Virus record (IMG/VR): IMGVR_UViG_3300020429_000529
Coordinates: 326,762 to 390,761 of that record
Source of the DNA: a virus
Length of the DNA: 64,000 nt
Direction: 5' to 3' (one strand)
The first letter of the stretch is position 1. Each line of letters begins with the position of its first letter. Positions 59,436 to 59,891 of the stretch are shown in pieces. Below the pieces are notes generated by a model. That model searched no databases and was not told the origin of the DNA. It was given only the letters and a program-made list of their open reading frames with translations. The position numbers and the translations under genes were made by a program.

Positions 59436-59463
59436 TTGACAAAGGGGCCATTGGGCGTACAAT
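59436..59463 (+). promoter_or_regulatory. sigma70-type promoter TTGACA-16-TACAAT
   Basis: Consensus -35 at 59436-59441 and -10 at 59458-59463; about 45 nt upstream of the AAAAGGAGG RBS and the ATG at 59508. Confidence 0.6.
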
Positions 59464-59507
59464 GGCTCGTAGGAAGTTGAATCTATTTGCTCAAAAGGAG
59501 GCAACCC

Positions 59508-59891
59508 ATGGGATTCACATAGGACCAGGACAAGAATCAGACCCCTTACGTCTACGTTCTTTGTAGACGAGACCTGCCGTCGTCCCAGCAGGTCGTGCAG
59601 AGCGGACACGCTCTCATTGAAGCGTCGAGAGCTTTTGATAAGCCTCCGTAGGACGAACATCCCCATCTTGTAGTCTGCGGCGTTCGAGACGAGGCGCGAT
59701 TGATGCGCGCTGCTGATGCGCTCGACAAGGCTGGTATTTCTTACCGTCTTTTCCGCGAACCAGATCGCAACAACGAAGTTACGGCCCTCGCCACGGAAAC
59801 TCTTCGCGGCGAACGGCGATCCTTTTTCAAGCGGTTTCAACTGTTGAATCCGAGCGCTGAAGGTACGCGCTCTGAACCTGTCACCTCATAA
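59508..59891 (+). CDS. PTH2-like peptidyl-tRNA hydrolase with two in-frame UAG codons (59520-59522, 59649-59651)
   Basis: One frame runs from ATG 59508 to TAA 59889, interrupted only by two TAGs. It has a strong RBS and promoter. The translation YVYVLCRRDLPSSQQVVQSGHALIEAS resembles the PTH2 N-terminus LVIVVRTDLKMGKGKIAAQVAHAA; the ORF-track ORF 59700-59891 is its 3' part. Confidence 0.5.

Follow-up and report, generated by a model that had tools for sequence, protein, structure and literature searches.

A gene for a protein related to peptidyl-tRNA hydrolase 2 (PTH2) lies near the end of a 64,000-nucleotide window of viral DNA (the whole stretch that was analyzed, positions 326,762 to 390,761 of the IMG/VR record IMGVR_UViG_3300020429_000529), and its reading frame is interrupted by two TAG codons. 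Very probably it is an intact gene encoding a specialized PTH2-fold protein, the translation of which is gated by the in-frame stops by means of a dedicated suppressor tRNA. The stops are real, conserved and under selection, and the type of stop codon at the gate matches the anticodon of the linked suppressor tRNA.

The interrupted gene and its relatives

The elements that define the gene are listed below in window positions; L001 designates the locus of its closest relative.

59436..59463, + strand: predicted sigma-70-like promoter, composed of a TTGACA box (59436-59441), a 16-nt spacer and a TACAAT box (59458-59463), 11 of 12 positions matching the consensus
59493..59501, + strand: Shine-Dalgarno (SD) sequence AAAAGGAGG, 6 nt upstream of the leader ATG (59508-59510)
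59508..59519, + strand: leader M-G-F-T, four codons, read from the sequence
59520..59522, + strand: gate 1, in-frame UAG at codon 5, followed by GAC (TAG-GAC kept in L001)
59649..59651, + strand: gate 2, in-frame UAG at codon 48, in the loop PP-UAG-DEHPHL, read from the sequence
59889..59891, + strand: TAA, real terminator of the PTH2-like gene
59508..59891, + strand: full read-through open reading frame (ORF) of 127 codons, predicted PTH2-fold protein (Q-type paralog)

The promoter, ribosome binding site and ATG 59508 that a preliminary description had recognized were borne out by direct reading, as was the single frame running from this ATG to TAA 59889 and broken by TAG 59520 and TAG 59649 only. 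The closest in-frame stop 5' of ATG 59508 is TGA 59478, and a promoter scan returned 2 sites per 2 kb vs 0.7 expected from shuffled sequences.

Comparison with L001, which comes from another sample and shares 75% protein and 73% nucleotide identity with the window gene, revealed that both TAGs, each followed by GAC, are kept at a synonymous divergence (dS) of ~1.1, with a ratio of nonsynonymous to synonymous change (dN/dS) of 0.19 for the whole gene, 0.25 for the segment flanked by the two TAGs and 0.15 for the part that follows the second one, and with no frameshifts. These values point to purifying selection throughout the gene, on either side of the stops, and suggest that both stops survived near-saturating synonymous change. 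Both TAGs are likewise retained in a strain with 99.8% identity, found on a 502-kb contig, and their preservation in relatives of 99.8 and 73% identity excludes the sequencing errors considered as an alternative in the preliminary description. L001 has the same leader, M-G-F-T, and similar ones occur in L004, L010, L041, L047, and L052 (MGFS, MGFT, MKFT, ..GFT). The second site carries TAG in the same loop (PP-stop) in L001, L004, L005, and L006, a TAG occurs at about the same distance from the first conserved strand in L031 (FP-stop) and L065 (PP-stop), and L088 and L089 have an internal TAG near this position.

Homologous loci were gathered from IMG/VR, JGI metagenomes, GTDB genomes, and GenBank phages, and 85 distinct ones had a readable N-terminus. 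A locus was considered gated when an in-frame stop was found no more than 12 codons ahead of the first conserved strand of the family ([YF]-V-Y-V-L-V-R-x-D-L), after a leader of 1-12 codons and with no ATG in between. By this definition 71 of the 85 loci are gated, most often with the leader M-X-stop, while 4 are ambiguous (ATG after the stop) and 10 are ungated or unclear. The gated loci derive from IMG/VR, metagenomes, metagenome-assembled genomes (MAGs) of Planctomycetota, and cultured jumbo phages. The gate is TAG in 68 of them, TGA in 2 and TAA in 1, an excess of TAG with a binomial p=3e-29 against a background of 0.33, and 50 of 69 gated loci have an SD core 4-18 nt 5' of the leader ATG, compared with 10 of 69 control windows. 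A second in-frame TAG ~30 codons after the first was found in 9 loci, including the window, and 7 gated genes use TAG as their own terminator. Gate stops are followed by a purine in 70 of 71 loci, vs 6 of 17 for the terminator TAGs of the window, a bias in keeping with the gate that might simply reflect the V, I, D, E, or N residues encoded next. Across these loci, the N-terminal stop is a trait of the family, and the in-frame TAGs are far beyond chance.

The joined translation of the window gene matches the Pfam family PTH2 (PF01981) over residues 16-95, across the second TAG, with E=1.7e-4 and 22.2 bits, slightly under the gathering score of 23 bits; P0001, the protein of the 75%-identical relative, reaches 23.3 bits. 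A database search retrieved 22 homologues of the read-through protein, 15 of which match PF01981 (best E=4.9e-9). Evidence on the fold was obtained with an AlphaFold (AF2) model of P0001, standing in for the window protein, with a predicted local distance difference test score (pLDDT) of 84 and a predicted template modeling score (pTM) of 0.76. In a Foldseek search of the PDB with this model the top 13 matches were all PTH2 structures, archaeal and human (probability 1.0, TM 0.62-0.75), including 2zv3, 3erj, 1q7s, 1wn2, 1xty, and 1rlk. The read-through product of the window is thus predicted to have the PTH2 fold, and the PTH2-like identity proposed in the preliminary description holds, with a borderline Pfam match of its own.

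Profile alignment to 2zv3 places the Lys of ‘GKGK-MVAQGGHA’ opposite a Gln that is conserved in the family (‘Q-xxVQxxHA’), and E84, D86, and T92 are invariant across the family. The catalytic residues of S. solfataricus Pth2 are Lys18 and Asp86. A separate, ungated canonical PTH2 is encoded in the same jumbo phages (Xoo-sp13, RsoM2USA, RaK2, LR756511, and others); because of this coexistence the gated gene is regarded as a specialized paralog, and the family as a whole is distinct from canonical PTH2.

The preliminary description had asked whether the UAGs occupy conserved Gln, Trp, Tyr, or Lys positions. They do not: in ungated homologues no conserved residue is found opposite either gate, and the conserved feature is the stop codon itself. 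The Gln present at both sites in the database version of P0001 was rejected as evidence: the DNA of L001 reads TAG-GAC at both sites and the Q reflects the code-15 assumption of the gene caller.

Two strong hairpins had also been described in the 5' region. Both are present in the window sequence (59549-59569 and 59571-59594); however, their region is not unusually stable (folding z=-1.3, with 23 of 200 shuffles folding equally well) and hairpin 1 is not kept in L001, where the homologous stretch gave z=+0.7. Hairpins were consequently discarded as stimulators of read-through, and the stable, conserved downstream structure that characterizes read-through of the murine leukemia virus (MuLV) and plant-virus type is not found here.

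Suppressor tRNAs linked to the gate

Upstream of the PTH2-like gene the window carries two genes for tRNAs with the anticodon CUA, which the preliminary description had missed and which likely supply the decoding mechanism:

52817..52888, + strand: tRNA, anticodon CUA (amber suppressor), 6.6 kb upstream; ARAGORN; Rfam tRNA 69.4 bits; discriminator A
56907..56982, + strand: tRNA, anticodon CUA (amber suppressor), 2.5 kb upstream; ARAGORN; Rfam tRNA 58.4 bits; cloverleaf, discriminator G

Both fold as canonical cloverleaves, and the ‘Pyl’ label assigned by ARAGORN stems from the anticodon alone. For the tRNA at 52817 the nearest tRNA of the window is Lys(CUU), with 70-73% identity.

At the family level, a suppressor tRNA was found in the fetched DNA for 48 of the 71 gated loci, and all 54 such tRNAs are on the strand of the gene, at a median distance of 530 nt and with 8 of them within 100 nt of the gene. 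The anticodon follows the gate: TAG-gated loci have CUA alone (43 loci), CUA plus UUA (2), or UUA alone (1), and both TGA-gated loci (L009 and L012) have UCA; no non-cognate suppressor tRNA was detected among these 48 loci. When only loci with at least 3 kb of flank on each side are considered, a cognate suppressor tRNA accompanies 37 of 46 gated vs 3 of 8 ungated loci (p=0.02). No suppressor tRNA is found near ungated homologues such as RaK2, L082, L085, and L116. L077 (a contig of a Saccharibacteria MAG) and L087 belong to a subfamily (..HAVAEYLL..W.NGT..) with an ordinary ATG and no gate, and have a tRNA-CUA 0.3-0.6 kb away; thus, the association between the family and suppressor tRNAs extends past the gate.

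The same arrangement is present in cultured phages. Cronobacter phage GAP32 encodes MAQ-TAG-NEKTW... with an annotated ‘Sup-tRNA’ 2.8 kb away; in Yersinia phage fHe-Yen9-04 (MSH-TAG) the region is unannotated and a tRNA-Sup-CTA lies at 3.1 kb; Acinetobacter phage ME3 (MT-TAG) has a tRNA-CUA 0.4 kb upstream and Salmonella phage Arash (ML-TAG) has one 1 kb away, a tRNA (49176-49247 of OQ632216) that is annotated as tRNA-Phe and has the anticodon CUA according to ARAGORN. In Xanthomonas phage XacN1 and Stenotrophomonas phage RAS14 (both M-K-TAG) and in Xanthomonas phage Xoo-sp13 (M-K-K-TAG) the gate precedes a fusion protein of ~280 aa; no tRNA occurs within the flanks fetched for these three. 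In these fusions (L022, XacN1 ORF364; L026, Xoo-sp13_327; L027, RAS14) the PTH2-like domain is the C-terminus and follows an unannotated N-terminal domain (..HDIGKP..), which in XacN1 had no Pfam match, and the gate is upstream of the annotated start, before the whole fusion. These cultured phages are annotated under the standard code, and the gated gene is missing or truncated in their GenBank records, which the gate would explain, as can be seen in NC_019401 (GAP32_397), NC_042116 (between g407 and g408), KU935715 (ME3_195), and OQ632216 (Arash_gp84c). Atu_ph07, which has a UCA suppressor, yielded no member of the gated family, its one PTH2 being canonical and annotated.

Several observations weigh against a gate operated by suppressor tRNAs. 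For 23 of the 71 gated loci, mostly on short contigs, no suppressor tRNA was found in the fetched DNA, and L019, L048, L058, L026, and L027 lack one even though their flanks measure 4 kb or more in each direction. The two TGA loci are mutually related, so that the TAG/TGA covariation perhaps represents one evolutionary switch. The single TAA gate (MKET-TAA-IYNRLYVITR, at 9998 of L114), in L083/L114 (IMGVR_UViG_3300035208_009193, 675 kb), is more than 10 kb from any tRNA. In the related loci L117 and L118 the sequence reads MKET-TAG and a tRNA-CUA is located 1.1 kb upstream. Either an ochre suppressor is encoded elsewhere in the genome with the TAA gate or that gate was lost. A search for further TGA- or TAA-gated relatives yielded this one TAA case. 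The few ungated homologues that still adjoin a tRNA-CUA (L077 and L087) fit a functional link and not gating. The suppressor tRNAs are diverse and resemble no single isotype, the nearest tRNA being Lys in 7 of 17 and only at 62-74% identity. Finally, replacement of the Lys of the PTH2 motif by a conserved Gln suggests that hydrolase activity is not assured. Assignment of isotypes by similarity to other tRNAs of the same genome gave inconsistent results, with this low identity to Lys, and was dropped.

Odd tRNAs with six-base anticodon loops were also reported by ARAGORN beside gated genes, in L010 (10430-10502) and L004 (8116-8186); the former, with the loop CTCTAA(C), probably represents a CUA suppressor in which the last pair of the stem is mismatched.

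Proposed mechanism and alternative readings

In the proposed mechanism, ribosomes would start at the SD-served ATG 59508, synthesize M-G-F-T and meet the UAG at codon 5 and then that at codon 48. Decoding of both by a phage tRNA-CUA would produce the 127-residue protein and, without suppressor decoding, release factor 1 would stop synthesis after four residues. Synthesis of the enzyme would require an active suppressor and would scale with suppressor activity, and with a gate at codons 2-13 the closed state would cost almost nothing and leave no truncated protein.

As to why such an enzyme should be gated in this way, the preferred rationale is that it would act on the suppressor tRNA or on by-products of suppression (peptidyl- or aminoacyl-tRNA from read-through or stalled ribosomes). 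This would create a dose-matched loop, by feedback or feed-forward, with a logic like that of the autoregulation of release factor 2 (RF2), a proposal that we consider tentative, its chances being somewhat below even. The alternative rationale is a simple AND-gate or timer that controls a costly protein. A direct functional link is favored because the specialized paralog exists beside a canonical PTH2, because even the ungated L077 and L087 have a suppressor tRNA next to them and because the fold acts on the acylated 3' end of tRNA. More speculatively, and with the balance rather against it, the suppressor tRNA and the stop-gated PTH2-like enzyme, often with a partner protein (SRWGxHPC) encoded downstream, could form a dedicated two-part circuit in which the enzyme is the principal client of the tRNA and in turn targets that tRNA, or the peptidyl or aminoacyl form of it, setting the level of read-through in the infected cell.

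Among the alternatives, the one that survives best is an ordinary genome-wide reassignment of TAG to Gln (code 15), as in Lak, crAss-like and other alternatively coded phages, with the gene being one of many that are recoded; it is nevertheless improbable. It is consistent with the two tRNA-CUA genes of the window and with the translation of the closest relative by a database gene caller with TAG as Q, and because the window covers 64 kb of a ~500-kb genome, late genes elsewhere could be recoded. Conversely, TAG ends 17 of the 73 genes called in the window (~23%), as it does the 7 gated genes mentioned above, and no other gene was found with an internal or N-terminal TAG in these 64 kb; two candidates at 44617 and 24241 were rejected as they have ordinary ATG starts. 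Back-up stops are not enriched near the TAG terminators of the window. Reading through TAG in the fetched loci gave no gain in ORF coverage over TGA and TAA controls, a test that is itself uninformative since removal of any stop raises coverage. The near-identical 502-kb contig is densely called under code 11 except for the PTH2-like gene, which is reduced to a fragment of 62 aa. The gate is shared by cultured jumbo phages of enterobacteria, Acinetobacter, and Xanthomonas annotated under code 11, and in one of them, XacN1, there are only 18 amber terminators, the in-silico read-through of which yielded nothing (PMC5852040). Furthermore, it is the position of the stop and not the residue that is conserved across ~70 lineages. 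From the traits of code-15 phages, the window thus displays a suppressor tRNA, but neither many genes with in-frame TAGs nor the abandonment of TAG as terminator. With a standard code otherwise in use, the stop would act as a private switch that ties the amount and timing of the enzyme to suppressor-tRNA activity.

A second alternative, slightly less probable still, is that M-x-x-stop constitutes an upstream leader ORF and that the protein is produced without read-through, by termination-reinitiation or from a non-canonical start after the stop. The leader is short (1-12 codons) and preceded by a strong SD, and an ATG occurs within a few codons after the stop in 4 loci. Two- to five-codon minigenes, such as lambda bar, promote peptidyl-tRNA drop-off, and the peptidyl-tRNA released is a substrate of Pth. 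Reinitiation would not require that the leader be in frame with the domain, as it is in all 71 gated loci, and the codon after the stop is usually GTT, GTA, ATT, ATC, GAC, GAA, or AAC, none of them a start codon. Neither would it explain why the stop type follows the anticodon of the neighboring suppressor tRNA, and the second in-frame TAG inside the domain in 9 loci, the window included, is not bypassable by reinitiation. Minigenes are mentioned in PMC4929431.

It is very improbable that UAG encodes a non-standard amino acid, as pyrrolysine does, through a dedicated tRNA. This would suit the ‘Pyl’ labels and the co-location of the tRNA, the gated gene and the partner protein. Nonetheless, these tRNAs score 58-69 bits on the general Rfam model and are ordinary cloverleaves with varied acceptor stems and discriminators, in contrast to the atypical tRNA-Pyl that accompanies PylS, and no synthetase domain was found among eight neighboring proteins scanned; besides, versions with TGA and UCA exist and the gate positions are not conserved functional residues in ungated homologues. 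Lastly, a pseudogene or an error of sequencing or assembly, as two nonsense codons under the standard code and gene callers that split or drop the gene might suggest, appears effectively refuted by identical TAGs in a strain-level and a more distant relative, by the dN/dS of each segment (0.15-0.25) in the absence of frameshifts and by the gate in 71 lineages.

Known systems, significance and genomic surroundings

Recoded phages with code 15 or code 4 (Ivanova 2014; Borges et al., 10.1101/2021.08.26.457843) resemble the present system in that a phage suppressor tRNA has been proposed as a regulatory switch over in-frame stops in a standard-code host. In those phages many genes, mostly late and lysis genes, are recoded and the stop is abandoned as terminator, whereas here a single small gene, physically linked to the tRNA, has its stop at one constant N-terminal site and TAG still serves as a terminator. 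RF2 (prfB) also has a conserved early in-frame stop in a termination-related factor, the yield of which reports activity at the stop, and such a stop in an ORF of translation-factor type is what was found in 71 of 85 lineages; in prfB, however, the bypass is a +1 frameshift and the stop is recognized by the gene's own product, while here it would be in frame and tRNA-dependent. Read-through in RNA viruses and in Qbeta (A1 protein) likewise decodes an in-frame stop as sense to give a longer protein, but it relies on host near-cognate tRNAs and on context or downstream RNA structure and produces a C-terminal extension, in contrast to a stop at codons 2-13 with no significant RNA structure and a cognate suppressor tRNA encoded by the virus. 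Synthetic feed-forward and AND gates based on suppressor tRNAs (PMC7969014, NAR 2020) similarly need the mRNA and an amber suppressor tRNA and have a tight off state; those are engineered, and the gate described here would be natural and widely conserved.

Canonical PTH2 (PF01981), reported in jumbo phages (Iyer et al., 2021, PMC7824862) and in the tRNA arrays of cluster C mycobacteriophages (PMC5966550), shares the fold, the R-x-D-L...Q..HA motif and the location in tRNA-rich regions of large phages; the gated family differs from it by the Gln in place of the motif Lys, by ‘FREPD..N..TALATE’ instead of ‘DAG.T’, and by the stop-codon gate.

Stop-codon recoding in phages has been documented (10.1101/2021.08.26.457843, PMC9523058), without mention of a hydrolase or PTH in the former, and suppressor tRNAs with no known targets have been noted (PMC5852040, PMC6102473); for XacN1, two CUA suppressor tRNAs per terminal repeat were described and the authors found no target gene (PMC5852040). 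A stop-gated PTH2-like gene linked to a suppressor tRNA is not described in the literature searched, which did not extend to subscription-only sources. What is new is a suppressor-tRNA-dependent recoding that is private to one gene family, N-terminal and tRNA-linked, in cultured phages with a standard code.

The presence of suppressor tRNAs in standard-code jumbo phages, for which no target was known, may be explained by this gate, as the gated PTH2-like gene offers a specific, conserved and linked one. It would also be a natural counterpart of the tRNA-gated designs used in synthetic biology, and it is a plausible intermediate between the standard code and stop-codon reassignment. In the more speculative reading of a two-part circuit given above, the suppressor tRNAs of standard-code jumbo and huge phages would be half of a circuit rather than tools to rewrite the code, and the system would represent a natural autoregulatory switch based on tRNA, possibly the evolutionary seed of the full reassignment seen in phages. 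These ideas can be addressed in culturable systems, namely Cronobacter GAP32, Yersinia fHe-Yen9-04, Acinetobacter ME3, Salmonella Arash, and Xanthomonas XacN1.

The gene directly 3' of the PTH2-like gene encodes the partner protein referred to above:

59905..60369, + strand: conserved partner gene, 154 aa, motifs SRWGYHPCDYETF, RW.RK..HNR, and ARTPV

A partner gene of this type (~150 aa) immediately follows that for the PTH2-like protein in 36 of 77 loci, the two TGA-gated ones among them. The protein had no Pfam or PHROG match, and its AF2 model (pLDDT 70) had no fold match in the PDB. The closest homologues of the PTH2-like gene in bacterial genomes are in MAGs of Planctomycetota (Gemmataceae), and the three-part module composed of the gated gene, the SRWGxHPC protein and tRNA-CUA also occurs on Planctomycetota-binned contigs (L069-L075), one of them, L069, a 1.64-Mb contig of a Gemmataceae MAG; in these bins the module may be part of a prophage or of some other integrated element. 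The stretch separating the two suppressor tRNAs (53823-56982, according to the gene calls of L078) has genes with weak matches to the SpoU-type RNA 2'-O-methyltransferase, histidine phosphatase and HD-domain families. On the relative contig, a gene for a short class-II HisRS-like protein follows ~10 kb after the PTH2-like one, at a point shortly after the window ends. These neighbors possibly have tRNA-handling functions.

Part of an ENA contig of 502,461 bp (ERZ25074452 ctg12106) matches the window at 97-99.8% identity, which indicates that the window belongs to a phage genome of ~0.5 Mb; a DNA search of GenBank phages with the window gave no match. The window contains 45 tRNA genes and a gene for transfer-messenger RNA (tmRNA) with the tag peptide ANSNTLRMAA, all on the + strand:

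1-26111 and 34768-35119, + strand: tRNA array and tmRNA
3111-3195, 3832-3921, 7935-8018, 8867-8958, 11435-11518, and 21861-21945: long tRNAs with an insertion in the variable region

Two ORFs near the PTH2-like gene, 58550-59329 (..VPTPGALALLSMGGIAAIRRRR) and 62394-62684 (..PAPSGMFLLGLAGLMLARRKRR), end in PEP-CTERM-like sorting signals and had no Pfam or PHROG match. Such signals fit a host of the Planctomycetota type and are an unusual cargo for a phage. The HhH/Ogg-like gene at 61707-62384 ends in a TAG followed by A, which lies three codons before, and in frame with, the ATG of the 62394-62684 ORF (site 62382-62396), so that amber suppression would fuse both proteins; this arrangement may be coincidental.

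The long tRNAs are those for Lys, Asn, Arg, Gly, and Cys, which normally have short arms and here measure 84-92 nt. Lys-UUU (3111) and Gly-UCC (11435) share a nearly identical insert (..AGCGAAAGCTCAT[CT]GCGGGTTCGAATCC..), and the insertions could be long extra arms or small introns.

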